This document shows, piece by piece, positions 16,857 through 32,000 of a stretch of DNA of 32,000 nt. The position numbers and the translations under genes were made by a program. The notes under the pieces were generated by a model. It ran no database searches, was not told where the DNA came from, and saw nothing but the letters and a program-made list of their open reading frames with translations. The first letter of the stretch is position 1; each line of letters starts with the position of its first letter. The DNA comes from Thiotrichales bacterium 19S3-11 (lineage in GTDB: Bacteria; Pseudomonadota; Gammaproteobacteria; Francisellales; Francisellaceae), in assembly GCA_021713295.1 (NCBI GenBank), contig JAKJJU010000022.1, positions 13,401 to 45,400 of the forward strand. The letters run 5' to 3'.

Positions 16857-17936
16857 ATGACTAGGCTATTTATTATTTGTATTACTTTTTTTTGTATAAG
16901 TTCACTTAGCTATTCGATGAATAAAGAAGACTATATCCATACTTATAATTGTTCTATTAATTTAGCAAAAAAAGGTGATACGAACGCACAATATAATTTA
17001 GGTTATCTTTATGAACATGGGTTAGGTGTCAAAGGAAATTATCAAAAAGCAATCTATTGGTATAGAACTTCAATTAAAGGTGGTAATAATACAGCATTAT
17101 TTAATTTAGCGCGTATGTATGAGCATGGATTAGGCGTTAGAGAAGATCATCAAAAAGCATTTCAGTTATACTTAAAATCTGCAAAATTAGGTTATGCTAA
17201 TTCTCAATTGCTTTTAGGTTCAATGTACTTTTTAGGCAAAGGCATTAATAAAAATTATGAAAAGGCATATTTCTGGTATGAAAAAGCTGCTCATCAAAAT
17301 AATATTTTAGCGCAGCGGAATCTAGGTCTTTTATATTTAGATGGTATTGGTGTTAAAAAAGATGATCAGAAAGCTAAGCATTGGTTAGAGTTAGCCTATA
17401 AAAATGGTGATGTTGAATCTAAACGCATATATGAATCTGACAAAAAAATTAAATCATATGGTAAATATATTGGTTATTTTGTTGCTGGTTTGCTTGTAGT
17501 TTCTTATATTTTATTATTAATTTTCTTATTTCGTCTTGGTCGATCAATTAAAGATAAGCGACTTAAAAATTGGTTTGTTTGGTTAAGCTTAGTTCCAGTT
17601 ATTAGTATAATATTTTATTTATTATTTATTTTTAAACTAAGGTCGGTGTTAAAGTCTATTTGTTTAGACAAAGATACAACATGCTTTAAACAAATCAAAT
17701 CATTTAATCAATACATTATAATACACTTATGCTTTATGATTTCTTTAGCTATCTCTACTTGGTTATTTATTTTTGTAGATGGTATCAGTCCTAATAGTCG
17801 TTATTTAGCAATTGTCTTACTATCAGTTCATTGCTTTTTTTATTTAGTAGTCCTAATTTTAACCGTCATTGTTATTGTGAAATCAATACGTTTGAGAAGA
17901 GAAATTTTAAAAATAGGAGCGAGGCAATCAAAATGA
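16857..17936 (+). CDS. Sel1-repeat (SLR/TPR-like) protein with signal peptide and C-terminal four-TM domain
   Basis: Five tandem repeats of the Sel1 signature (A.YNLG.LYE.G.GV..N..KA..WY...A..G). N-terminal hydrophobic signal. Four hydrophobic helices after about residue 205. Not a canonical F tra gene. Confidence 0.8.
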   Translation: MTRLFIICITFFCISSLSYSMNKEDYIHTYNCSINLAKKGDTNAQYNLGYLYEHGLGVKGNYQKAIYWYRTSIKGGNNTALFNLARMYEHGLGVREDHQKAFQLYLKSAKLGYANSQLLLGSMYFLGKGINKNYEKAYFWYEKAAHQNNILAQRNLGLLYLDGIGVKKDDQKAKHWLELAYKNGDVESKRIYESDKKIKSYGKYIGYFVAGLLVVSYILLLIFLFRLGRSIKDKRLKNWFVWLSLVPVISIIFYLLFIFKLRSVLKSICLDKDTTCFKQIKSFNQYIIIHLCFMISLAISTWLFIFVDGISPNSRYLAIVLLSVHCFFYLVVLILTVIVIVKSIRLRREILKIGARQSK

Positions 17937-20240: not shown

Positions 20241-23200
20241 ATGTTATCAATTGGCATTGTTACTTCATCAATGGATATACACAAATATTTCATCGATAAA
20301 GATAACTACTACTTAACCGATAAATCAGAGATTAAAGAATCATCACGATTTTATGGCAAAGGTGCTGAAGCTTTAGGCATTAAAGATAAGGTAGTTGAAG
20401 AAAAACTATTTTTAGATTTACTAGAAGGTCGATTGCCTAATGGTCAACAAATAGGTGTTAGCGGTAAAAGTCACAGGCCAGCAACCGATATTACCTTATC
20501 AGCGCCAAAGTCATTTTCAGTGATGGGCTTAATTGCTGGTGATGATCGCCTAAAGGATGTTCAAAGAAAAGCAGAAGAAAAAGTTTATAGTAAAATTGAG
20601 TCACTTTATGCAGAAGCTAGAAAAACGGTTAACGGAGTTACCTCTTATGAAAAGACAGGTAATTTAGTTATTGCCTTGTTTCCTCACTCATCATCAAGAG
20701 AGAAAGATGCTCAAATGCATACGCACGGTGTTATTTTAAATATGACTATGAGAAATGATGGACAGTGGCGCGCATTATCTTCAAGACAAAAGACTGATTT
20801 AATCAATATTGAGCATGGTTTTAGGGAATTAATTTATCAAAATCAGCATTACTTAGGCATGATTTATAATAGTGAGTTAGCCAAAGGTGCAATTGATTGT
20901 GGTTATGAGCTTGAAGTTTTAGACAAATATGGCAATTTCAAAATCAAAGGTTTATCGGATGAGTATTTAAAAAGCCAATCAAAAAGACGTGAACAAATTT
21001 TAGATATGGCGAAAGAAAAAGGTACAATGACACCTAAAGCTTTAAGTGCTTTCTCTAAAGCATCACGTAAAATTAAAGAGGCTGTTACACCTGATAAATT
21101 AAAAGAAGCATGGCAAGAAGATGCCAAAGCGCAAGGTGTTGATTTAAAAAAAGTGCTTGATCAGTCAATTCAGCGAGTTAATGATAAAGGCAATCAGCAT
21201 ACACAATCTGTATCAAGTTCATTACATAAAATCAGTCAAAATGCTAAAGAGGCAATTAATGATGCCATTACGCATTTATCGCAGTTTTCAGTTAAGTTGC
21301 AGCATGGCGATATTGTAAGACAAGCCTTTATTTTTGGTGGTGGTGTGATCAACCATGAAGAATTAGAACATATTATTGAAACCAAACAAAAACAACGAGA
21401 ATTAATTGGATTATCTGACCAATACTACACAACGAAAGCGTTAATTACAGAAGAAAAAGCATTTAAAACGGCAATGAAGCAAACAAAAGCTGTTTCATGG
21501 TCAAAAGATATTGCTCAATCTGGATTGATTGCTGAAAGTTTAAAAAGTAATGATCGTATACAGATTATCAATACCAAAGGCTTAAAAAATGAAACGAATC
21601 TAATCAATGATGCGGTAAGAATAGTAGAAGCAAACGGTTTAAATGCTTATGTTTTGCATCCGAATCAATCACGTCTAAATCTCTTAAAAGAAGATGTCAC
21701 AAGAGATAAAAAGAATATTTGGCAGTATTTTAAAAACTATTTTAAAGGTGATCTATTACAAACAACAGGTAAGTTTGAACATGAATATAAGGCTAGGTTA
21801 AATAGTCCGTTTAGGTCAAAGAAACAAGATATGATCTTTGTTACTGACAGTCAAAAACTGTCTTATGAAGGATTAAGTAAGCTTAATGATTTAGCCGAAA
21901 AAGGTAATGCTAAGCTGATTCTGTTAAATAACACGGAATCAACACAAGGTTTTAGAAGTGGTAACCCAATTAAAGTATTACGTTCATGTGGTGTTGCTGA
22001 ATATAACTCAAAGACAATTAAAAAAGAGGTCTTAGTTGAGATTACACAAGCCGTACAAACCAATAAATTATTAGCTGAACATTACACTTCAATTGATAGA
22101 GATAAACGCAATTTAATACCGATTGTTGCATCAACGAACAAAGCACAGACAGATTTAACGCATCTAATTCGCAATCATTTAAAAGATCAAGGCGAATTAT
22201 CCATTCAGGAATATAACTATCAAACTTTATCAACGAAAGGCTTAAGTGACACTGAAAAGAAATATTTAAAATGCTATTCAGTCGGTGATCTAATTACGTT
22301 AAAGCCATTCACTAAAGATCAACAAGCGTATCTTATCAGTGACATTGATAAGGAAAATAAAACCTTATCGCTTATTTCAATTAATGCTAAAGATAATAAA
22401 ACTTATCAGTTATCACACGATGATCTATTAAAAACAGAGTTTCAAATTAACAAAAAACAAACACTTTCAGTGTCAGTCAATGATCGTTTAATGGCGACTC
22501 GTAACCTTTATATTAAAGCTAACCATTTAAGCAATGAACGAGTTAAAATTGATAAAAATAGCGTTATTGAAGTTGAATCAATTGCTAAAGATGGCTTAAG
22601 AATTAAGCATAATGAGCAAAGTTTATGGCTTTCAAATGAAGCATTAAAAGCATCAATGCTTGATCATGGTTATGTCATTAAACCGCATCAATTAGACAAA
22701 GAATTTAATCAGGTGTTTACTTCATTATCTGGCTATCAAGTTAATCAAAATAGTATTGGTGAATTAAAAGAATATGCAAAAAATATTCATCTATTTACGG
22801 ATAACAAAGAGAAAGCATCAAAATCTTTAGATTCAGAAAATATTGTTTGGGTTGCAACTGATATAAAGGCTCTACAAAAAAACACCAGTTACAACCCAAC
22901 AGTAAGGAATGACTTGTCAATCGAAAAGGACTTACAAGTAGTAGCTAATGCCCTATCACATGGGTGTGTTAAATCAACAGAGAAAGGGCAATTAACCACT
23001 CCTAAAGATCATACAAAAACATTGCTTAATACACAAGATGATCACAATAATATTAATGCCGATGCACGCTCTAATCAAAGTGTCACCAAAGGAATAGATG
23101 TCGTGCATACGGCAGTTTCCTATGGTATCGCAAAGTTAAGTGAAAAAGAAGCTTCTTTTTCAATGGAAGATTTACTTAAAGAATCAATGACCTATGCATT

Positions 23201-26200
23201 AGGTTATACGACAGGTGATGAAATCGAAAAAGTCATTGATGAAAAGCGCGCTAACGGTGAGCTATTAATTAATGATCGTCACGTCACAACGAAAGCAATT
23301 TACGAACTTGAGAAATCAATTATTGATAATATAAGTGATGGTCACAATCAGGTTCAATCAGTTGTTAATGAGTTACCTAGTTTACGTGAAGGTCTCACTC
23401 AAGGTCAAAAAGATGCAATATCGCTGGCATTAACAACAAAAGATCGATTCATTGGCATTCAAGGTTTAGCTGGTACTGGTAAAACAACCATGATGAAAGA
23501 ATTAAGAGAAAAAGCTGAATCAAATGGCTATGAAATTGTTGGTATTGCACCAACACATAAGGCGGTTCAAATGTTAGATGGGTCAATGAATGAAAAATCA
23601 TCAGGTGAACGCTTTAGAAATGCTGGTATTCCAGTCATGACCGCACATGCCTTTATCAACCAAGAATTAGACAAATACAATGATAAAACGATCTTTATTA
23701 TTGATGAGTCTTCAATGATTGGTAACCGCTTATATCATGGCATCCAACAGAAGACAAAAAGCTTAAATGCTCGAACAATTTTTGCTGGTGATATCAAGCA
23801 ACAAGCTGCCATTGATCAAGGAAAACCGCAAGAGTTGAGCCTAAATAATGGCTTAAAATATGCCTCAATGAATGAAATTATACGTCAACGTAATAGTCCA
23901 GTTTTAAAGAAAAGTGCTGAGTTAGCTGCCAGTGGTAAGGCATCTGAATCATTAACTAATTTAGAAAAAATAAACCCATTTGATCATATCAAACGTAAAA
24001 ACTATTATGCTAGTTCAACTGAATCTTTCGTTGAAATTGCGCCTGATAAAGACACAAAAGGCAATGTAATTTTAGGTGATGATGACAAACCTAGGTATAA
24101 CAACCTATATCAAGCGATTGCTAATGATTACTTAACAAGAGTTACAGAGCAAAGAGGTCATACCGTTGTTATTGCTAAAACCCATAAATCACGTGCTGTC
24201 ATTGATGAAAAAATAAGAGATGGCTTAATCAAAGAAAGTGTGATACATAGCTCACAACCAGTAACAAGGCTTGCATCAAAAGATTTAGAAAAGGTTGATT
24301 TATTAATTGCTAAAAACTACGAGGTCAATGATATTATTAAGTTTGATCGTAGCTTTTCAATCGCTAAGAAGGGCGATTTAATGAAAGTAACTGATATTAA
24401 TAGTGCAGATAATAAGCTTACTATTTTCAATGAAAAAGATGGCAATACCTATACGATCAACCCTGCTAAATTAGCAACCAATGCTCAAATATCTCTTTAT
24501 CAGCAAGTTGATGCTAATTTAGGTATTGGTGATAGAGTTCGATTAAGAGTAAGTGATATTCCACGTGGTTTTACAGGTGGTCTTGAATACAAAGTTGAAG
24601 CAATTAAAGGCGACTATGCAACACTTAAAAATGACACAGATACCTTAAAAATCAACCTAAAGAATAGAGAAGATCAGATATGGGATTATGCCTATACCAA
24701 TACAACGTTTAGTGTTCAAGGTGATACCAAAAAATATGCAATTGGTCTTGAATTATTTGAAAATGATAGAGGAAACTACATTCAAATCACACGCGCTAGC
24801 GAACATGCAATTATCTATACTAGTAATAAGGCAAAGTTATTAACACAACTAGATGACGAGAAGGTTAAGTATGAAGCCAGCAAACGATCGGCGTATGAAC
24901 TCTTTGGTCAAAATAAAGAAAAAAATGCATCCAGCAAACAATCGGTATATGAATTCGTTAATCAAAAGAATGAAGACAAAAACCTTAAAATCCATGATCA
25001 AAAGGCTCAAGAAAGCCAGCCAGTTCATGAAAAGAAAACAAGTGAAATAACGCTAACTAAACCGAAAATCAAACCAGTTTTAGCAGATGATTTAAAGCCT
25101 CTTTTGAAAGAAAGATCAGAAGAATTAGCCATACATTTATTAGGTGAGCCTAATCAACAACTATCAAATCGTAGTCAATTAAGGTTCGGTCACAAAGGCT
25201 CATTATCAGTAACTATTTCAGGTCAGCATCAAGGAAAGTGGCGCAATTTTGAGACAGGCGAGCAAGGCAATGCTCTTGATTTAATTAAGGCAGAAATGAG
25301 CTATTCTAATTTTAAAGATGTCTTAAATTATGCTAAAAACTTCTTAAATTATGAGCCAACAAGTGAGCCAGTTAAGCAAGAATCAGTTGAGAAAGTAGCA
25401 AAAATTGATCTTGAAGAAACACAACGAAAAGAGAAAATGAAACAATATGCTACTAAATTATTTAACAATTCTAAGCCAATTAAAGGCACGCTAGCTGAAA
25501 AATATTTAAGCCAATCAAGAGGATTAAATAACTATCATAATGCCGATATTCGATTTTTACCTGCTATTTCTGGCTATGCTAAAAACAAAAAAACAGGTGA
25601 ATTTGACATTAAAGTCTATACACCAGCAGTCCTTGCATTTGCCAAAGATAAGGATAATCAAATTAACCATGTACAAGTGATTAGGCTTGATAGAGACGGT
25701 AATAAAAACAAAGAAGTTAAGATTGCTAAGCAAACCTATGGCTCAATGAATAGCTTTGCTGTTGAGTTAAATAACAAGGCAAATAAAGAAGTAACCTACC
25801 TTACAGAAGGCGTTGAAACGGGTTTATCAATCCTAAATGTTAATAAAAAAGCGGATGTTTTAGCTGTCTTAGGTAAGTCAAATTTTGCTAATATTGACCT
25901 AGAAAAGATAGCTGATAAGGTTATTTTGGCACTTGATAATGACGGTATTAGCAAAACTTTTTCTGATAAAACAATTGTAGATGCTGTCACACGATTACAA
26001 GAAAATGGTAAAGATGTACAAATCATTATGCCTGAAAAACCTAAGTCTGACTTTAACGATGTTTTAAAAAATGAAGGCTATCAAGCACTTTCAAAACAGA
26101 TTAATCAATCCTTATCAGCGAAAGATTTAAATCAAGTATCACTAAAATTAGCCAGTGATCATTTAATTAAATCTGAAAATATTACCTTAAATCAAGCTTT

Positions 26201-26435
26201 ATCTTTGATTGATAAAGACATTAAATATAAAGATTTTGATGCCCATAATAAAGTAAAAATCAATGATATTGATCACAAGTTACTTAAAAATATTGACCAA
26301 AATTATGCTATTAAAACTGATAAAAATCTTAATAAACAGATTGATACTGTCCTAAATGAGCAAGTTAAATATGATCAAATTGAAAATATTTTACCTGAAA
26401 AGACGCTTAAAATAGATAAGGAAATGGAACTTTAA
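20241..26435 (+). CDS. traI: TraI, MOBF relaxase-helicase with an additional C-terminal primase-like/Toprim module
   Basis: The start is moved to the ATG at 20241, 7 nt after AAGGAG (20228-20233). The N-terminus is co-linear with remembered F TraI: Y16, DKDNYY, LLEGRLPNG, HRPATDITLSAPKS, GNLVIALFPHSSSRE..AQMHTHGV. Helicase Walker A GLAGTGKTT (23463-23489) and FIIDESSM. C-terminal ~330 aa: RFGHKGSLSV..GKWRNFETGEQGNALDLI (cysteine-less primase finger-like), then Toprim YLTEGVETG and ALDNDG. Confidence 0.93.
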   Translation: MLSIGIVTSSMDIHKYFIDKDNYYLTDKSEIKESSRFYGKGAEALGIKDKVVEEKLFLDLLEGRLPNGQQIGVSGKSHRPATDITLSAPKSFSVMGLIAGDDRLKDVQRKAEEKVYSKIESLYAEARKTVNGVTSYEKTGNLVIALFPHSSSREKDAQMHTHGVILNMTMRNDGQWRALSSRQKTDLINIEHGFRELIYQNQHYLGMIYNSELAKGAIDCGYELEVLDKYGNFKIKGLSDEYLKSQSKRREQILDMAKEKGTMTPKALSAFSKASRKIKEAVTPDKLKEAWQEDAKAQGVDLKKVLDQSIQRVNDKGNQHTQSVSSSLHKISQNAKEAINDAITHLSQFSVKLQHGDIVRQAFIFGGGVINHEELEHIIETKQKQRELIGLSDQYYTTKALITEEKAFKTAMKQTKAVSWSKDIAQSGLIAESLKSNDRIQIINTKGLKNETNLINDAVRIVEANGLNAYVLHPNQSRLNLLKEDVTRDKKNIWQYFKNYFKGDLLQTTGKFEHEYKARLNSPFRSKKQDMIFVTDSQKLSYEGLSKLNDLAEKGNAKLILLNNTESTQGFRSGNPIKVLRSCGVAEYNSKTIKKEVLVEITQAVQTNKLLAEHYTSIDRDKRNLIPIVASTNKAQTDLTHLIRNHLKDQGELSIQEYNYQTLSTKGLSDTEKKYLKCYSVGDLITLKPFTKDQQAYLISDIDKENKTLSLISINAKDNKTYQLSHDDLLKTEFQINKKQTLSVSVNDRLMATRNLYIKANHLSNERVKIDKNSVIEVESIAKDGLRIKHNEQSLWLSNEALKASMLDHGYVIKPHQLDKEFNQVFTSLSGYQVNQNSIGELKEYAKNIHLFTDNKEKASKSLDSENIVWVATDIKALQKNTSYNPTVRNDLSIEKDLQVVANALSHGCVKSTEKGQLTTPKDHTKTLLNTQDDHNNINADARSNQSVTKGIDVVHTAVSYGIAKLSEKEASFSMEDLLKESMTYALGYTTGDEIEKVIDEKRANGELLINDRHVTTKAIYELEKSIIDNISDGHNQVQSVVNELPSLREGLTQGQKDAISLALTTKDRFIGIQGLAGTGKTTMMKELREKAESNGYEIVGIAPTHKAVQMLDGSMNEKSSGERFRNAGIPVMTAHAFINQELDKYNDKTIFIIDESSMIGNRLYHGIQQKTKSLNARTIFAGDIKQQAAIDQGKPQELSLNNGLKYASMNEIIRQRNSPVLKKSAELAASGKASESLTNLEKINPFDHIKRKNYYASSTESFVEIAPDKDTKGNVILGDDDKPRYNNLYQAIANDYLTRVTEQRGHTVVIAKTHKSRAVIDEKIRDGLIKESVIHSSQPVTRLASKDLEKVDLLIAKNYEVNDIIKFDRSFSIAKKGDLMKVTDINSADNKLTIFNEKDGNTYTINPAKLATNAQISLYQQVDANLGIGDRVRLRVSDIPRGFTGGLEYKVEAIKGDYATLKNDTDTLKINLKNREDQIWDYAYTNTTFSVQGDTKKYAIGLELFENDRGNYIQITRASEHAIIYTSNKAKLLTQLDDEKVKYEASKRSAYELFGQNKEKNASSKQSVYEFVNQKNEDKNLKIHDQKAQESQPVHEKKTSEITLTKPKIKPVLADDLKPLLKERSEELAIHLLGEPNQQLSNRSQLRFGHKGSLSVTISGQHQGKWRNFETGEQGNALDLIKAEMSYSNFKDVLNYAKNFLNYEPTSEPVKQESVEKVAKIDLEETQRKEKMKQYATKLFNNSKPIKGTLAEKYLSQSRGLNNYHNADIRFLPAISGYAKNKKTGEFDIKVYTPAVLAFAKDKDNQINHVQVIRLDRDGNKNKEVKIAKQTYGSMNSFAVELNNKANKEVTYLTEGVETGLSILNVNKKADVLAVLGKSNFANIDLEKIADKVILALDNDGISKTFSDKTIVDAVTRLQENGKDVQIIMPEKPKSDFNDVLKNEGYQALSKQINQSLSAKDLNQVSLKLASDHLIKSENITLNQALSLIDKDIKYKDFDAHNKVKINDIDHKLLKNIDQNYAIKTDKNLNKQIDTVLNEQVKYDQIENILPEKTLKIDKEMEL

Positions 26436-26758
26436 GCACTCTGCATACCTTCAATATAAGCATCAGAATTTGACTCAATCATATGAATTAATGTCTTAGC
26501 ATCAAAAAAATTACCTGTTGTTTTACTACGTTCAAAAACGCAATTTAGAATTTCTTTAGCAAGGTAATTGTTCTCTAGCACCATCTTTACAATTGGGTCT
26601 TCTACTTTTTCATCTGCTTTTTTAGTGCTAGCTTCATGAACTTTTAAGCCTAATTCAATCATATCAATGGCAAAATTTAGTTGTCCCTTCTCATCAGAAT
26701 TACAACTTTCTTGAATTTTTTGCCATATATTTGTGCCAATATCTAATGTTATTTCCAT
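26432..26758 (-). CDS. traM: TraM-like relaxosome accessory / signalling protein
   Basis: 108 aa. ITLDIGTNIWQKI....AIDMIELGLKVHEAS parallels remembered F TraM VNLYISNDAYEKI....ASMLLELGLRVHEAQ. It lies next to the predicted oriT. Confidence 0.6.
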   Translation of the reverse strand: MEITLDIGTNIWQKIQESCNSDEKGQLNFAIDMIELGLKVHEASTKKADEKVEDPIVKMVLENNYLAKEILNCVFERSKTTGNFFDAKTLIHMIESNSDAYIEGMQSA

Positions 26759-27225
26759 CTATTTTTGTCCTTTTCAATTGGTATTGTTTTCATATTTCTA
26801 TGATTTATTGAGCAATGAAGTGTATCATAATTGTAAGTTTGAAATGCTCCATATGTATTTTTAAGTGTCTCATCAACCGATGATTTTACTACATTGAATA
26901 ATTGCTTATTGTCATTTCTAGCGTATATTAATTCTTGTGTATAGTTAGATACAATTTGCATATCACAAGCCATATTTGGAATACTAACATGAATCTGTTC
27001 TAGCATTTTTTTCATCTTTAAGATTTCAGAATTAAGATCAATTTTTTTATCGTTTGATTGTGATTCTTGATCATTCATTCTTTCGCGAATTAATAATTTC
27101 ATTGCACTTGTTAATAATGGTTTTGAGTTAACATTAAATAAATTATTTTCAATTGCTAACTTTTCTAAAAATGTTTTTTCCTCTCTAGTTAATCGAATCG
27201 AAGTAGGTGGTATTTTGTTATCCAA
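26749..27225 (-). CDS. Ribbon-helix-helix DNA-binding protein; candidate TraY-like relaxosome accessory factor / autoregulator
   Basis: TTG start at 27225, 8 nt after AAGGA. The N-terminus TSIRLTREEKTFLEKLAIEN has the beta-strand/helix pattern of RHH proteins (compare F TraY LTMRLDDETNQLLIAAKN). It is the first gene next to the palindrome array and overlaps the traM-like gene by 10 nt. Confidence 0.55.
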   Translation of the reverse strand: MDNKIPPTSIRLTREEKTFLEKLAIENNLFNVNSKPLLTSAMKLLIRERMNDQESQSNDKKIDLNSEILKMKKMLEQIHVSIPNMACDMQIVSNYTQELIYARNDNKQLFNVVKSSVDETLKNTYGAFQTYNYDTLHCSINHRNMKTIPIEKDKNRWK

Positions 27226-27260: not shown

Positions 27261-27516
27261 GTATCACAATGTGATGCACTATTATATTTTATCGTATCAC
27301 AATGTGATGCGCAATACATTTCACTTATTTTTAAAAATATAAATCACATATAAAATATATAGTTAAATGTGTATCACAATGTAATAATTTGTATTGCTAT
27401 GTGATGCGCTTTGAGTTAGTTCTGTCATACTCATGTAATACTTTATGTATCACAATGTAATCTATTGAGATAATTAACTAATTTATATACGTTTTATTAA
27501 TATTACTCTGTGATAC
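27261..27516. promoter_or_regulatory. Operator array: repeated 13-bp palindrome ATCACA-A-TGTGAT within GTATCACAATGTGATGC
   Basis: Two perfect 17-mers at 27261-27277 and 27294-27310 (33-bp spacing). Variants at 27371-27385, 27391-27407 and 27447-27461. Half-sites at 27423-27430, 27434-27441 and 27509-27516. Confidence 0.8.
27286..27314 (-). promoter_or_regulatory. Sigma70-type promoter for the RHH/traM operon
   Basis: On the minus strand: -35 TTGCGC (27314-27309), 17-nt spacer, -10 TAAAAT (27291-27286). The spacer is filled by palindrome copy 2, and copy 1 lies just downstream of the predicted start. This is an autorepression-like layout. Confidence 0.55.
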
Positions 27517-27601
27517 AAGATTATCTGTATATTATTTAAACATTTTAAAGTATTTAAAATAAGCTAAAATCTATGATATATATAGTCTTTTTTGAATAAA
27601 C

Positions 27602-27726
27602 AAAGGCAAAATCAATTGCGTGATGTGTGGGTGCTTTCTCTCGGTATCAGGTAATGTTAAATTCTAATGCGTATCCTCTGGAATCTTTAAAGGCTTCGTT
27701 TGCCAACTGAACACAAAAGGCAAAAT
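27602..27726 (+). other. oriT: oriT core with predicted nic site (T27628|G27629) on the + strand
   Basis: 27616-27637 TTGCGTGATGTGTGGGTGCTTT compared with remembered F TTTGCGTGGGGTGT|GGTGCTTT and R100 TTTGCGTAGTGTGT|GGTGCTTT. Flanked by an 11-bp direct repeat AAAGGCAAAAT (27602-27612 and 27716-27726) and an inverted TTTGCC (27699-27704). Confidence 0.7.
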
Positions 27727-28054: not shown

Positions 28055-28144
28055 CCCCCTGCTTTGGTTGGTGCTTTTAGTCCAGCTAAAATATTATTTT
28101 ATATACTTCTTTAAATATTATTATATTTATTTTTTTAAATAGTT

Positions 28145-28380: not shown

Positions 28381-28884
28381 TTAAATAGCTTCTAAATAAT
28401 TTTTATTTTCATTCATTTTTGTACTATTAAATTTCTCTCTTATTTCCTCCATACTCCACTCTTGATTATTATTTCTATGTTTTTTGCCTTTGGCTTGTTC
28501 AGGACGATAAAACCACATTTGCTTTTTTCTTGCCCATTTAAAACCAGCCTGTTTAATTATTTCTTTATGTGCTTTAGTCTCACCTGACAGCCACACCCAT
28601 AACCCACATATTTCTATAACAATACCAGTTAAATTTTTAACGGCATTTAACGCTGTGTTTAAAATTTCTGGGTATTCTGTCATTTGAATATTTTCAAAAA
28701 CTTCGATTTCTTCAATATCTTTTAAAATTTCATAAGCACAATTAATTACTTTCATCATTTCAATACCTGCTGGGTTTCTATCAGGATGAAATTCTTTTAC
28801 TTTTAATCGATAAGATTTTTTAATATCACTAGCTGTAACCTTTCCTTGTAAACCTAAAATTAATGCAGCTTCAAACTTGTTCAT
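28381..28884 (-). CDS. J-domain (DnaJ-like, HPD motif) protein with a W-rich basic C-terminal domain
   Basis: The start is moved to the ATG at 28884, 6 nt after AGAGG. J-domain helices II/III flank the HPD motif (ASDIKKSYRLKVKEFHPDRNP...MMKVINCAYEILKD). No Gly/Phe or zinc-finger regions. The C-terminus reads GLWVWLSGETKAHKEIIKQAGFKWARKKQMWFY. Confidence 0.8.
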   Translation of the reverse strand: MNKFEAALILGLQGKVTASDIKKSYRLKVKEFHPDRNPAGIEMMKVINCAYEILKDIEEIEVFENIQMTEYPEILNTALNAVKNLTGIVIEICGLWVWLSGETKAHKEIIKQAGFKWARKKQMWFYRPEQAKGKKHRNNNQEWSMEEIREKFNSTKMNENKNYLEAI

Positions 28885-28925
28885 TTTCAACCTCTATGTT
28901 ATTTTATTTTGTGTTGCCACACTTC

Positions 28926-29192: not shown

Positions 29193-29948
29193 ATGGATAT
29201 TATCGAAATCAATCCCCAACTTTGTAAACGTTGGCAATTTGCTGACCGATCTAACTTTGAATTTGGCGATACTCTCAAACTCGGTACTGACATCAAAAAC
29301 AACGGTCAAGTTGAGCCTGTTATTGTCAGAAAATCAAATGATTCTAAATTTAAGTATGAGGTAATTGCTGGTAGCCGTCGTCATCGAGCTTGTCTTGAAA
29401 CTGACATACTAATGAAAGCTATCGTTAAAAATATCTCTGATCAAGAAGCTTTCTTTATGCAGCTTAGGGAAAATGAGAAGCAACCTATTTCAGACTATTC
29501 ACGTGGAATGAATTTCAAAAAATTAATTGATAGCGGAAAATCAACAGTTGAAGAGTTGTCAAAAATCAATCAATGCTCAAAAGAGAAAATATATCACCTA
29601 CTCTCATTTGCAAGCGTACCAACACAAATATGGGATGCTGTTGCTAACATGAGCAAAGTCTCTTGTCGTTCTGCTAGTACAATCAATGCCCTTGCTAAAA
29701 AAGGTGATCAATACGTCAGTGCTTTAATTGATATTGCAGAAGAAATCAGAAAAGGCGCTGGGAGCAGAAAAATTGAAAACTTAGTTAATACCATAGTCAA
29801 CGGTGAGCAAAAAATTGATGACCAAAGACAAATTGTATCTAAAGAGGGTAATGTGATTGGTAAGTGGGTTAAAAATACAATTGTTTTTGACAAATCTTTT
29901 ACAGTAAACCAAAAAGATATTGAAGATTTATTAACCGAGTATCTTTAA
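29193..29948 (+). CDS. ParB/Srx-fold N-terminal domain protein (orphan ParB-like; no ParA in the window)
   Basis: AAGGAAG RBS. VEPVIVRK....YEVIAGSRRHRAC is the ParB box II / arginine-patch pattern (GxRRxRA). A probable HTH follows (STVEELSKINQCSKEKIYHLL). Confidence 0.75.
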   Translation: MDIIEINPQLCKRWQFADRSNFEFGDTLKLGTDIKNNGQVEPVIVRKSNDSKFKYEVIAGSRRHRACLETDILMKAIVKNISDQEAFFMQLRENEKQPISDYSRGMNFKKLIDSGKSTVEELSKINQCSKEKIYHLLSFASVPTQIWDAVANMSKVSCRSASTINALAKKGDQYVSALIDIAEEIRKGAGSRKIENLVNTIVNGEQKIDDQRQIVSKEGNVIGKWVKNTIVFDKSFTVNQKDIEDLLTEYL

Positions 29949-30106
29949 AAACAAGCACAGTAATTCCACCCGTGGCATCATTTCTCTCTCTATTCTTTTA
30001 AGTACTGTGCCTGTACTTGCATACTAAGTTAATATCTATATGATATCAATCGTGTTATTCATATATTTTCATGATATATTTACTGTATATTTTTGGATTT
30101 AAGCTC

Positions 30107-30322
30107 ATGATTAGACTTGAAACTAACAAACGCTACTATTTAATTAACTTGACCAAAGATTTATTTGATCAGTGGTGTGTTGTTTGTACATGGGGTTCTA
30201 AGCTATCAAGATTAGGAAATCAACAAACTCATCTGGTAGACAATGAAATATCAGGTCAAAGCCTAATTGCAAAAATCATTAAAACTCGCAAGAGTCATGG
30301 CTATGAAATTATCGAAGATTAG
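30107..30322 (+). CDS. Small WGR-domain-like protein
   Basis: KRYYLINLTKDLFDQWCVVCTWGSKLSRLGNQQTH....AKIIKTRKSHGYEI follows the WGR-domain pattern (rYY.l.l..dLFg.w.v.r.WGRiG..G.......K.k.GY). The start is uncertain: 30071 in the track, or the ATG at 30107. Confidence 0.5.
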   Translation: MIRLETNKRYYLINLTKDLFDQWCVVCTWGSKLSRLGNQQTHLVDNEISGQSLIAKIIKTRKSHGYEIIED

Positions 30323-30383: not shown

Positions 30384-31337
30384 ATGATTGTTAGAAAAAA
30401 TAACACAGACGTTAACAAGCCAAAGTACGACCAATACTTTAAATTCAATTTAGAAAAAAAAGAAATTGCCGAGGAAATTATCAGGTCTGTTTTACCTAAA
30501 GAATTAATTGAGTTTGCTGATTTCTCAAAAATGAAGCTTGAACAAAGTGAACATATTGATGAAGAGCTAAGAAAATTAATTACTGACGTGCTTTGGAGTA
30601 TACCAATTAAAGGCGAAAAGGCTTATATATACATCCTTGCAGAACACGAAAGTAGCCTTAAAAATCATCACTTACTACCTTTTAGGTTTCATAAGTATAT
30701 GATTCGTATTATGGAAAAGCACATTGCTAAAGGTAATAAAAAGTTACCTATTGTCATACCCGTGTTGTTTTATCATGGTGCAAAACAAGGATACCCTCAC
30801 AGCCTATCAATCTTTAATTGCTTTGAAGATAAAGAGCTTGCAAAAAAATATGCATTCCAAGATATCACATTAGTTGACCTTACCGTCCTAGATGAAAAAG
30901 AAATTGCTCTACAAGGATTTCGATTTTTCTTTCAATTGGTGTTAAAATATTCAAGAGACAAAGAATTAGCCAAACGATTAGTAGATATACTAGAAAAATA
31001 CCCTAATCTGGCAAATTATTTTGATGGTAAAGACTTTAAAGATGCATTTGTTCAATTATTAATGAGTTTAGATTTAGACTCTAAACATACTGCTAGAGAA
31101 ACTTTAAAGAAATTAGATGATTTAACTGGAGCTGATATTATGACGCTACGTGAACAATGGGAAGCTAAGGCTACTAAAAAAGGTGTTAAACAAGGGCGTA
31201 TTCAAGAAAAACAGGAAACGGCTAGGAATATGTTGGCTAAAGGTTTAGATACTAAATTGGTTGCCGATTGTACTGGTCTTGAACTTGAGACTGTTCTTGA
31301 GCTTAAGAAAGATGTTGATAATCAGAAGAAAAGATAA
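30384..31337 (+). CDS. Rpn-family (YhgA-like) PD-(D/E)XK recombination-promoting nuclease / 'putative transposase'
   Basis: FKFNLEKKEIAEEIIRSVLP...ITDVLWSIPIKGEKAYIYILAEHESS...LLPFRFHKYM...LPIVIPVLFYHG is the characteristic Rpn N-terminal nuclease core. It has the repeated helical C-terminal tail. Preceded by an extended -10, TGtTATAAT, at 30343-30351. Confidence 0.8.
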   Translation: MIVRKNNTDVNKPKYDQYFKFNLEKKEIAEEIIRSVLPKELIEFADFSKMKLEQSEHIDEELRKLITDVLWSIPIKGEKAYIYILAEHESSLKNHHLLPFRFHKYMIRIMEKHIAKGNKKLPIVIPVLFYHGAKQGYPHSLSIFNCFEDKELAKKYAFQDITLVDLTVLDEKEIALQGFRFFFQLVLKYSRDKELAKRLVDILEKYPNLANYFDGKDFKDAFVQLLMSLDLDSKHTARETLKKLDDLTGADIMTLREQWEAKATKKGVKQGRIQEKQETARNMLAKGLDTKLVADCTGLELETVLELKKDVDNQKKR

Positions 31338-31381: not shown

Positions 31382-32000
31382 TTAGCTGACATGTTTAATA
31401 TTCCAATAATTTGATAAATATTCTTCAATTTTACGGTAATTATCATAAGATAATTCAATCTTACCTTCTGGGCTTCCCAAATCCCTAACCCAATCCATAA
31501 CGAAATTATCAAGGCGCTTCTTTCTATTTTTTGCTGCTAAACGATTACTTAAAGTGCTGCCATAGTCTTTTCTATCACATCTAATTAAACGTAATAGTAA
31601 TCTAAATGATCGATAGCTGGCCTCCACATTTGTCGCCATTCCGCCAAAAATTATGCGATGTTCATTAAATAAGTGACGACTTAAAAAAACATGAGCAGTG
31701 CCAAAGCATTCATCTACATAACTAGCTATATCTGAACCATAATAAATTCCTGCTCTGCGTGTTAAATTAATTTCTTTACTCTGAACTATTTTAGATTCAT
31801 CAAACTTAATGACTTTACTGTCTGCTTCTACCAGTTGCTTGCGAAATTTTTCAATCCCTTCACATGTATAGTACATATCAAAACCATAATCTTTTGTTTT
31901 TTGAATACTATTCTGAAAAATCTTGCCTATGTTCCTATCATTACATGTCAAAATTTGTTTTGATTTTTCTGCTTCTTCTTCTTTTTTAATCCGTTGTTTT
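31382..32000 (-). CDS. Hypothetical protein, N-terminus cut by the window end (possibly DUF2786-type leading-region protein)
   Basis: The minus-strand frame stays open upstream of the TTG at 31951 to the window edge (…KQRIKKEEEAEKSKQIL-TCND…). The family assignment comes only from a vague recollection of similar plasmid proteins. Confidence 0.5.
   Translation of the reverse strand, partial: KQRIKKEEEAEKSKQILTCNDRNIGKIFQNSIQKTKDYGFDMYYTCEGIEKFRKQLVEADSKVIKFDESKIVQSKEINLTRRAGIYYGSDIASYVDECFGTAHVFLSRHLFNEHRIIFGGMATNVEASYRSFRLLLRLIRCDRKDYGSTLSNRLAAKNRKKRLDNFVMDWVRDLGSPEGKIELSYDNYRKIEEYLSNYWNIKHVS

Follow-up and report, generated by a model that had tools for sequence, protein, structure and literature searches.

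An F-type TraI from Thiotrichales bacterium 19S3-11 as a predicted relaxase-helicase-primase

Relaxases stay covalently attached to the 5' end of the transferred strand (T-strand) and enter the recipient. The plasmid primases TraC1 and SogL are exported to the recipient and there prime synthesis of the complementary strand (PMC5512222), and the primase linked to MobA of R1162 is cited in a recent review as required for mobilisation (PMC12857230). Recent reviews describe MOBF relaxases as relaxase plus helicase and keep primase fusions for the MOBQ class (PMC12857230, PMC6362355). A primase domain in the TraA_Ti protein of Rickettsia was noted in 2015, with a suggested role in recipient priming (PMC4564193), and a paper on the Orientia mobilome lists a 'Toprim region' in TraI (PMC10732058); no paper on a MOBF version of a relaxase-helicase-primase was found in the searchable literature. 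Here we analyse the traI gene in a stretch of 32,000 nt (the window, to which all positions refer) from Thiotrichales bacterium 19S3-11 (assembly GCA_021713295.1, contig JAKJJU010000022.1, 13,401-45,400, forward strand). The reading of its product as a relaxase-helicase-primase is well supported at the levels of sequence, predicted fold and active-site conservation, and we show that this traI is an ordinary representative of a database-defined, experimentally neglected kind.

Several described systems share parts of this design. The long TraI proteins of Legionella, Piscirickettsia, Vibrio, Shewanella baltica and Cysteiniphilum have the same order of TrwC, helicases, DUF7146 and Toprim_3 and the same position after traD; they differ from the window TraI in sequence, and the linker and tail of the latter are slightly longer (2064 aa in all). 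The Rickettsia bellii TraA_Ti / MobA-MobL relaxases of RAGE elements likewise combine a relaxase, a RecD-like helicase and a C-terminal DUF7146/Toprim_3, but their relaxase is MOBQ (MobA/MobL) rather than MOBF (TrwC) and they have no vestigial helicase. RP4 TraC1 and R64/ColIb SogL belong to the same primase clade as the window module (Toprim_3, DaN- motif, EG(Y/V)xT), but are separate polyvalent proteins without a covalent link to relaxase or helicase. P4 alpha is collinear with the module over the whole primase part (finger, core and Toprim), but has a four-Cys zinc ribbon, carries its primase N-terminal to an SF3 helicase and serves origin-dependent replication, not conjugation; distant relatives of the module lie at the N-terminus of P4-family D5-type helicases (P0015, P0019-P0024). 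RSF1010/R1162 MobA-RepB' is like the window TraI in concept, with a primase covalently joined to a relaxase, but its relaxase is of the MOBQ class and it has no helicase; the RepB' primase is not known to be of the Toprim/DnaG type. The window TraI has no MobA_MobL match in Pfam, its relaxase being TrwC and its primase of Toprim type. Finally, F and R1 TraI have the same relaxase, vestigial helicase and active helicase as the window TraI, but F TraI (1756 aa, in line with the length of about 1750 aa given in an earlier note on this DNA, hereafter the original prediction) is without the finger-like ribbon, the Toprim Glu (D-N standing for E-G), the DxD and the DFND, and has TraI_C in place of the module; Pfam finds no Toprim in F TraI.

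The window contains an F-type transfer operon (TraB, TraC, TraU, TraN, TraH, TraG, TraT and TraD by NCBIfam and Pfam), of which traI, with traD alongside and the other genes upstream, is the last and a long open reading frame (ORF). The coding sequence occupies 20241..26435 on the + strand (ORF 20172/20241..26435) and translates without interruption into 2064 aa plus stop; the count of 2064 aa from the ATG at 20241 had been given before, and the translation agrees, with zero internal stops. Since the alignment with TIGR02760 ('TraI_TIGR', an equivalog model of 1960 positions) begins with residue 1 on model position 1, this start is supported; the protein's score, 1239.9 bits, exceeds the cut-off of 929.85. 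The TrwC-type (MOBF) relaxase comprises residues 14-297 (20280..21131, + strand; Pfam TrwC, E 5.5e-66; NCBIfam MobF, E 8e-67; relax_trwC, 284 bits vs a cut-off of 145.5), and its DNYY tyrosines and H..HTH histidine motif can be read in the sequence. A vestigial helicase region precedes the active SF1B helicase, whose AAA_30 P-loop core (residues 1052-1243; 23394..23969, + strand; Pfam E 3.8e-39) has the Walker A motif GLAGTGKTT. Nicking at the origin of transfer (oriT) and DNA unwinding are predicted activities of this part of the protein.

A Lys/Gln/Glu-rich linker, recognised from its sequence (residues ~1546-1635; 24876..25145, + strand), leads from the helicase to the primase module. Its last 35 residues (1601-1635) are included in an AlphaFold2 model: prediction is poor for the first ~10, and two confident helices (H15-24 and H26-34 of the model) make up residues 1615-1634. 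There follow a zinc-less, primase-finger-like ribbon with two helices (residues ~1636-1702; 25146..25346, + strand; hhalign, Foldseek), DUF7146 (residues 1732-1842; 25434..25766, + strand; Pfam E 3.5e-16, 59.9 bits, cut-off 27), Toprim_3 (residues 1853-1946; 25797..26078, + strand; Pfam E 2.2e-15, 57.3 bits, cut-off 27.2) and a helical C-terminal tail of ~118 aa predicted with low confidence (residues 1947-2064; 26079..26432, + strand; predicted local distance difference test score, pLDDT, mostly <50). The DUF7146 and Toprim_3 matches are far beyond chance, since their bit scores stand well over the curated cut-offs. The interval singled out in the original prediction, 25060-26435, thus spans the linker end, the entire primase module and the tail, and every string quoted there is present: LRFGHKGSLSVTISGQHQGKWRNFETGEQGNALDLI at residues 1647-1682, YLSQSRGL, IRFLPA and PAVLAF at 1755-1800, TEGVETG at 1855-1861 and LDNDG at 1898-1902. 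Two of the checks that it proposed agree with it: the domain scan finds TrwC, AAA_30, DUF7146 and Toprim_3, the last two above their curated cut-offs, and the predicted structure of the C-terminus (residues 1601-2064) has primases as its best matches.

Profile, profile-profile and fold comparisons concur in identifying residues ~1636-1950 as a primase core of the DnaG/T7/P4-alpha/Sog type. In hhalign comparisons the family profile aligns with residues 33-312 of P4 alpha primase, collinearly from the zinc ribbon to the end of the Toprim (probability 96.5%, E 7e-10). It also aligns with residues 48-371 of E. coli DnaG (E 3e-8, probability 95%), with motifs II, IV, V and VI in register, and with residues 178-377 of R64-type SogL (probability 93.7%). 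The DnaG alignment pairs motif II (YLekRGL) with YLSQSRGL, motif IV (E265) with TEGVET, motif V (D309, D311) with LDNDG and motif VI (D345, D347) with SDFND. A hidden Markov model (HMM) of 148 module sequences gives P4 alpha 38.6 bits, an IncL/M plasmid protein annotated 'DNA primase TraC' (not RP4 TraC1) 33.5, DnaG 33.3 and SogL 29.7. Against PDB chains, a search with the single module sequence gave no match, and a search with the module profile found B. subtilis DnaG alone (E 0.0011). In the AlphaFold2 model of residues 1601-2064, pLDDT is at least 90 for 280 residues, and the model's best 27 Foldseek matches in the PDB are all DnaG/T7/T4/Twinkle primases (E 3.5e-7 to 2e-3), among them T4 gp61, Twinkle, T7 gp4 and the DnaG cores of S. 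aureus, B. subtilis, P. aeruginosa, E. coli and M. tuberculosis. For a sub-domain model of residues 1722-1885 (pLDDT 94.5), the top 37 matches are primases and the F TraI structure 3FLD alone. On this evidence DUF7146 is, as judged by profile and model, the N-terminal subdomain of the DnaG-type RNA-polymerase core, and by its sequence the module is a DnaG-superfamily primase of the mobile-element clade of P4 alpha, RP4 TraC1 and R64 SogL. The central claim of the original prediction, a MOBF relaxase-helicase that continues in frame into a primase-type C-terminus (finger-like ribbon, DnaG core and intact Toprim), is therefore upheld, with Pfam, hhalign and Foldseek in agreement.

Conservation was assessed across the 148 homologous modules, one per 50%-identity cluster and mostly 30-50% identical to that of the window. 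Ten residues are invariant in 148/148 (Y1755, L1756, R1760, E1856, G1857, D1899, D1901, P1931, D1937 and N1939), and D1940 (146/148), K1830 (145/148) and K1822 (143/148) are nearly so. Y1755, L1756 and R1760 form motif II, YLxxRG, within DUF7146. The Toprim residues E1856 (25806-25808) and D1899 and D1901 (25935-25943) align with DnaG E265, D309 and D311, and motif VI with D345/D347; the DFND of the window TraI (D1937-F-N1939-D1940; 26049-26060) keeps its D and N in 148/148, an aromatic residue in 130/148 and the final D in 146/148. A 'DaN-' motif before strand 4 has been described as a synapomorphy of the catalytically active mobile-element primases, Pfam Toprim_2, _3 and _4 (Iyer et al. 2017, PMC5512222), and the DFND sequence matches that signature. 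Judged by alignment, the Toprim metal-binding site is intact and complete, and the pattern of invariance looks like that expected of purifying selection on catalysis. We considered whether the Toprim might instead be nuclease- or topoisomerase-like (OLD, RNase M5, RecR or topoisomerase type) and serve strand processing or anti-defence, given that Toprim domains are common to nucleases, RecR and topoisomerases and that gyrase and RecR Toprims do appear in the Foldseek search of the module model. They appear only weakly, at E >= 0.07 (0.07-0.1), whereas the strong fold and profile matches, including those of the motif II subdomain and the finger-like ribbon, are all to primases, and the DaN- synapomorphy is present; we therefore take the module to be a primase-type Toprim and reject the nuclease or topoisomerase assignment, which we regard as very improbable.

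The finger-like ribbon requires separate comment. Its segment, ~1636-1702, aligns with the C4 ribbon of P4 alpha and the CHC2 finger of DnaG (hhalign), is predicted at pLDDT >90, and is matched at the N-terminal ribbon by the isolated DnaG zinc-binding domain 1d0q (Foldseek, TMt 0.62). The positions of the zinc ligands are occupied by N, L, N and T, and the 464-residue region has zero Cys, so that the canonical four Cys/His zinc-binding domain of the DnaG, T7 gp4 or P4 alpha type is not present in the window module. Among the homologues, 127 of the 148 have no Cys in the finger segment and none has four; the segment is nonetheless strongly conserved, as R-(Y/F)-G-x-K-G-S-L ... G-x-W-x-(D/N)-F-E-T-G-x-x-G-N-x-x-x-L-I. 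A CPVH sequence persists in the distant stand-alone relatives P0026 and P0027, and the CHC2 Pfam model touches 3 of 54 relatives. The suggestion of a finger without cysteines 'as in P4-alpha/TraC-type' primases holds for the window, where cysteines are indeed absent, but not for the comparison, since P4 alpha has a genuine four-Cys ribbon (Pfam Zn_Ribbon_Prim, E 1.9e-18) and SogL, unlike the window TraI, has no finger at all. SogL is an established active and exported primase (PMC5512222); the loss of zinc ligands is thus no argument against activity, and the zinc domain is not defining for this subgroup of plasmid primases.

The distribution of the module was surveyed by tblastn against 72,556 plasmids and by an exhaustive search of 1.84 billion cluster representatives of proteins, from which 173 proteins were collected. 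The latter search gave 3377 matches at E <= 1e-3 and 262 at E <= 1e-30. The 173 include 54 with a TrwC-like relaxase, helicase and module, 44 with helicase and module, and one with a relaxase but no detectable helicase; the relaxase-helicase-module combination is accordingly found in at least 54 clusters at 50% identity, and a helicase accompanies the module in 98 of the 99 multidomain representatives. On plasmids of Piscirickettsia, Legionella, Cysteiniphilum, Vibrio and Shewanella the module lies inside genes annotated 'traI: conjugative transfer relaxase/helicase TraI' (module identity to the window 46-49% in Piscirickettsia, 37-42% in Legionella), and the RefSeq TraI proteins of L. pneumophila (WP_021436866, 1956 aa) and of V. 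vulnificus pC4602-1 (WP_011988397, 1924 aa) have the same four Pfam domains. The closest protein, 93% identical to the window TraI, is from Thiotrichales bacterium 19X7-9, and a search for related loci with the TraI protein as query gave the contig of that bacterium alone. Moreover, the C-terminal 511 aa of the window TraI alone align to TIGR02760 model positions 1508-1947, so that the curated definition of TraI already includes the module. The original prediction had held a primase on an F-type TraI to be unusual and had proposed a survey of MOBF relaxases; with the module in TIGR02760, in RefSeq TraI from the plasmids of four genera and in at least 54 clusters, the fusion is common and the claim of rarity is wrong. 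The relaxase-helicase-primase TraI is, rather, known to databases, common in nature and barely discussed.

The module is also carried by MobA/MobL (MOBQ-type) relaxase-helicases of 1600-2100 aa, and is thus joined to two unrelated relaxase classes: five scanned non-TrwC proteins (P0062, P0081, P0093, P0139 and P0155) have a MobA/MobL relaxase, AAA_30, DUF7146 and Toprim_3. On plasmids of Rhizobiales and Rhodobacterales it occurs as a stand-alone 'toprim domain-containing protein', which on the Rhizobiales plasmids adjoins conjugation genes. Shorter relaxase-helicase-module proteins of 1300-1420 aa were observed as well (P0061, P0063, P0075, P0084, P0108, P0162 and P0168); they apparently lack part of the vestigial-helicase region, having TrwC-like size plus a primase, and do not form one clade in a rough neighbour-joining (NJ) tree. 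By megablast, neither traI against E. coli genomes nor traD-traI against plasmids gave a match, and so there is no close DNA relative in those collections. In one record, Piscirickettsia salmonis plasmid NZ_CP013764.1, the annotation assigns the module region to a 'toprim domain-containing protein' of its own beside traI, which points to a frameshift or a split gene there. This annotation is what could speak for the window traI being itself two genes, traI and a toprim gene, joined by an assembly error or frameshift. Since the ORF is continuous, the GC content is flat across the junction of helicase and C-terminus (0.335/0.334) and dozens of homologues have the same unbroken architecture, amounting to 54 independent clusters, with a 1960-position model that spans the region, such an artefact is excluded; we give it a negligible probability.

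Considering these data, we think it rather probable that the window TraI consists of a TrwC relaxase, a vestigial helicase/single-stranded DNA (ssDNA)-binding region, an SF1B 5'-3' helicase, a linker and a primase that primes the transferred strand in the recipient. TraI would nick oriT and remain covalently attached to the 5' end of the T-strand, would be unfolded and pass through the T4SS (type IV secretion system) together with the DNA, and would refold inside the recipient. There, the tethered primase would make RNA primers on the incoming single strand, which would let the host DNA polymerase III begin the complementary strand without a recipient primosome or an ssDNA promoter. The helicase, moving 5'-3' on the T-strand, could move the primase over its template, the two forming a one-chain travelling primosome with distributed priming; such a primosome is suggested by the finding that the module almost always accompanies an SF1B helicase, and does so in two unrelated relaxase classes. 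Primer synthesis, export of the window TraI and its action in the recipient are thus proposed by analogy, and it is the analogy with TraC1, SogL and the MobA-linked primase of R1162 that makes a TraI bringing its own tethered primase into the recipient the most likely case.

A number of points weigh against this proposal. No experimental study of any member of the long-TraI subgroup was found in the searchable literature; export of TraI into recipients is assumed from F TraI and TrwC; and in the leading region neither a primase recognition site nor an ssi site was found. In DnaG and T7 primases the zinc-binding domain selects the initiation site, and with its ligands absent here the chemistry of initiation may differ. 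Finally, F TraI's C-terminal domain (CTD) is essential without a Toprim site, so that the module too could have a non-catalytic role in the relaxosome.

RSF1010 MobA/RepB', Sog and TraC each come in two forms encoded by a single gene, and the 32-kb window shows no replication initiator. Both facts could suit a primase that serves vegetative replication in the donor, as RepB' does at the RSF1010 oriV, either as part of TraI or from an internal start, with no action in the recipient. Against this, the stretch from the helicase to the module's first conserved block has no Met codon. Many unrelated elements, moreover, carry the module on their relaxase-helicases, and on the Rhizobiales plasmids it adjoins conjugation genes; this distribution ties it to transfer and not to one type of replicon. 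We consider a purely vegetative role unlikely.

A further reading would give the module a chiefly structural or regulatory part in the relaxosome, as a platform for binding of the TraM-like protein, of TraD or of ssDNA, with its primase chemistry dispensable or vestigial. The F TraI CTD, apparently a degenerate homologue of DUF7146 and the start of the Toprim, is essential for transfer without the catalytic residues and has been described as a platform for TraM interaction (PMC12117103); a TraM-like gene lies directly downstream of the window traI; and a conserved motif at the extreme C-terminus suggests a docking peptide. The motif ([ILMFVP][DE]x[DE][ILF..] or ..E-R, within the last 8 residues) occurs in 74 of the 173 homologues, vs 0.3% of random 8-residue windows, and could serve in export or as a peptide on which TraM or TraD docks. 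What is hard to explain on the platform reading, if catalysis is dispensable, is that the Toprim Glu, DxD and D-x-N are retained in 148/148 modules at ~30-50% overall identity, whereas F, which is without these residues, shows relaxed constraint. We regard a platform without catalysis as improbable. As regards the tail itself, that of the window TraI ends in the acidic/hydrophobic ...KEMEL, that of Legionella in REMEREL, that of Vibrio in DRELER and many others in IEREIY; F TraI has MERDM 15 residues before its end.

The relation of the module to the F TraI CTD was pursued with profile and fold comparisons. The structure of that domain (3FLD) was reportedly presented as a novel fold. It has been called poorly characterised and a TraM-interaction platform (PMC6439144, PMC12117103), and a primase is never mentioned for it in the accessible literature. 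In TIGR02760, F residues 1480-1755 fall on model positions 1671-1947, that is, in the same columns as the window module. Pfam TraI_C (PF07057), which covers F TraI residues 1465-1622 (L004:9066-9539, PDB 3FLD) and was compared with window 25416-25874, matches, at E <= 0.01, 6 of the 54 module proteins, the best of them at E 2.1e-7, in segments that overlap DUF7146; on P0016 it covers residues 184-336, over DUF7146 and the start of Toprim_3 (E 4.9e-7). A profile of 14 F-like sequences only, aligned by hhalign with the 148-sequence module profile, is collinear over 138 columns, pairing F 1470-1608 with window ~1726-1878, F vLRQAGL..RFIAP with window YLSQSRGL..IRFLPA, and F LLADNMQDGVRIA with window YLTEGVETGLSIL. 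The score is 32.8, vs 14.0 +/- 2.5 (maximum 21.7) for 60 column shuffles, that is z ~7.6, and 13.6 for the reversed profile. The F-only HMM, in turn, matches module sequences in register, five of them at E <= 0.01, vs a best of 0.28 for the reversed control. Moreover, in the Foldseek search with the sub-domain model 1722-1885 the 3FLD chains rank 11 and 13 and are the sole non-primases in the top 37, the next unrelated structure having a probability <= 0.23.

Against homology stand TM-scores to 3FLD of 0.24-0.37, the absence of a match to F TraI with the 148-sequence module HMM and of 3FLD from the profile search of PDB chains with the module, the absence of a TraI_C match at E <= 0.1 in the full window protein or its C-terminal 511 aa, and a comparison (hhalign) of a shallow 28-sequence profile with the single F TraI C-terminus, in which only the helicase end was aligned; the link is visible with Pfam TraI_C, profile-profile comparison and 3Di fold search only. 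On balance, the four weak but concordant lines in its favour make it probable that the F TraI CTD is a degenerate homologue of DUF7146 and the first Toprim strand-helix. It would then be catalytically dead, since D-N replaces the Toprim E-G and the DxD and DFND are absent, and if it is a remnant, F would have lost the activity rather than the window TraI having gained it. In an NJ tree of the relaxase and helicase parts the short TrwC-like forms are not monophyletic and F TraI does not fall outside the module-bearing sequences; this tree is star-like, and gain and loss cannot be told apart from it. More tentatively, these elements may be joined in one proposal, namely that the ancestral F-type TraI was a relaxase-helicase-primase of which the F/R1 CTD is a dead remnant, that the intact form works as a travelling primosome, and that the loss of zinc from the finger is an adaptation to unfolding and refolding in T4SS transport; taken as a whole we consider this somewhat less likely than not. 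If it is true, F-like plasmids have lost self-priming, rely on the host RNA polymerase at ssDNA promoters, and keep the CTD as a relaxosome platform.

The module would also explain naturally where the enigmatic and essential CTD of F TraI came from. A substantial fraction of F-type TraI proteins, spread widely across taxa and including some from the pathogens Legionella, Piscirickettsia and Vibrio, bears an apparently active primase, as far as its residues can tell. If the module primes in the recipient, the element would bring its own start of the complementary strand, covalently tethered to the DNA, which would widen the host range and shorten the vulnerable single-stranded phase. E1856 and D1899/D1901 offer simple targets for point mutants with which to study how establishment in the recipient begins.

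Immediately downstream, a TraM-like gene (26432..26758, - strand) converges on traI, the two stop codons overlapping. Its product matches Pfam Tra_M at a score under the cut-off (24.9 vs 27.7 bits, E 2.2e-5) and NCBIfam TraM (E 8e-4) and is probably a relaxosome accessory protein. A second small convergent gene (26749-27225, - strand) belongs to no family. As in the window, small convergent genes lie downstream of traI on the Legionella plasmid, where two convergent ORFs of similar sizes (106 and 149 aa) follow an extra small + strand ORF.

A putative oriT, recognised by repeats and an F-like nic motif, occupies 27261..27638 (+ strand). The repeats, GTATCACAATGTGATGC, number five direct and one inverted (27261-27517), are spaced 20-77 nt and lie in an intergenic region of 24-28% GC. 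The putative nic motif, GCGTGATGTGTGGGTGCTTT, is at 27618-27638 and closely resembles the F oriT nic region, GCGTGGGGTGT|GGTGCTTT, the assignment of nic being by analogy. A second GGTGCTTT is found at 28069-28076, 440 nt right of the nic motif. If GCGTGATGTGTGGGTGCTTT is nic, the + strand rightwards of it would be the leading end. The repeats are on the TraM-like-gene side of the motif, the side transferred last, like the TraM/TraY sites of F, and these 17-mers are probably, by that analogy, bound by the TraM-like protein or by other accessory proteins of the relaxosome. The original prediction had the primase perhaps working with this array, placed just after nic; given that the repeats lie on the other side, next to the TraM-like gene, and look like accessory-protein sites, we abandon that link on grounds of position, by analogy with F oriT only.

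The presumed leading-region side holds a DnaJ-domain gene (28384-28890, - strand), a ParB_N gene (29193-29945), a small WGR-domain gene (30071-30319), a YhgA-like (Transposase_31) gene (30384-31334) and a DUF7168 gene (31385-31951, - strand). Within the transfer operon, between traT and traD, lies a gene for a Sel1/TPR-repeat protein of 359 aa (16857-17936, + strand), whose matches, all weak, are to Sel1-repeat families (MerG, MotX, AlgK and ExoR).

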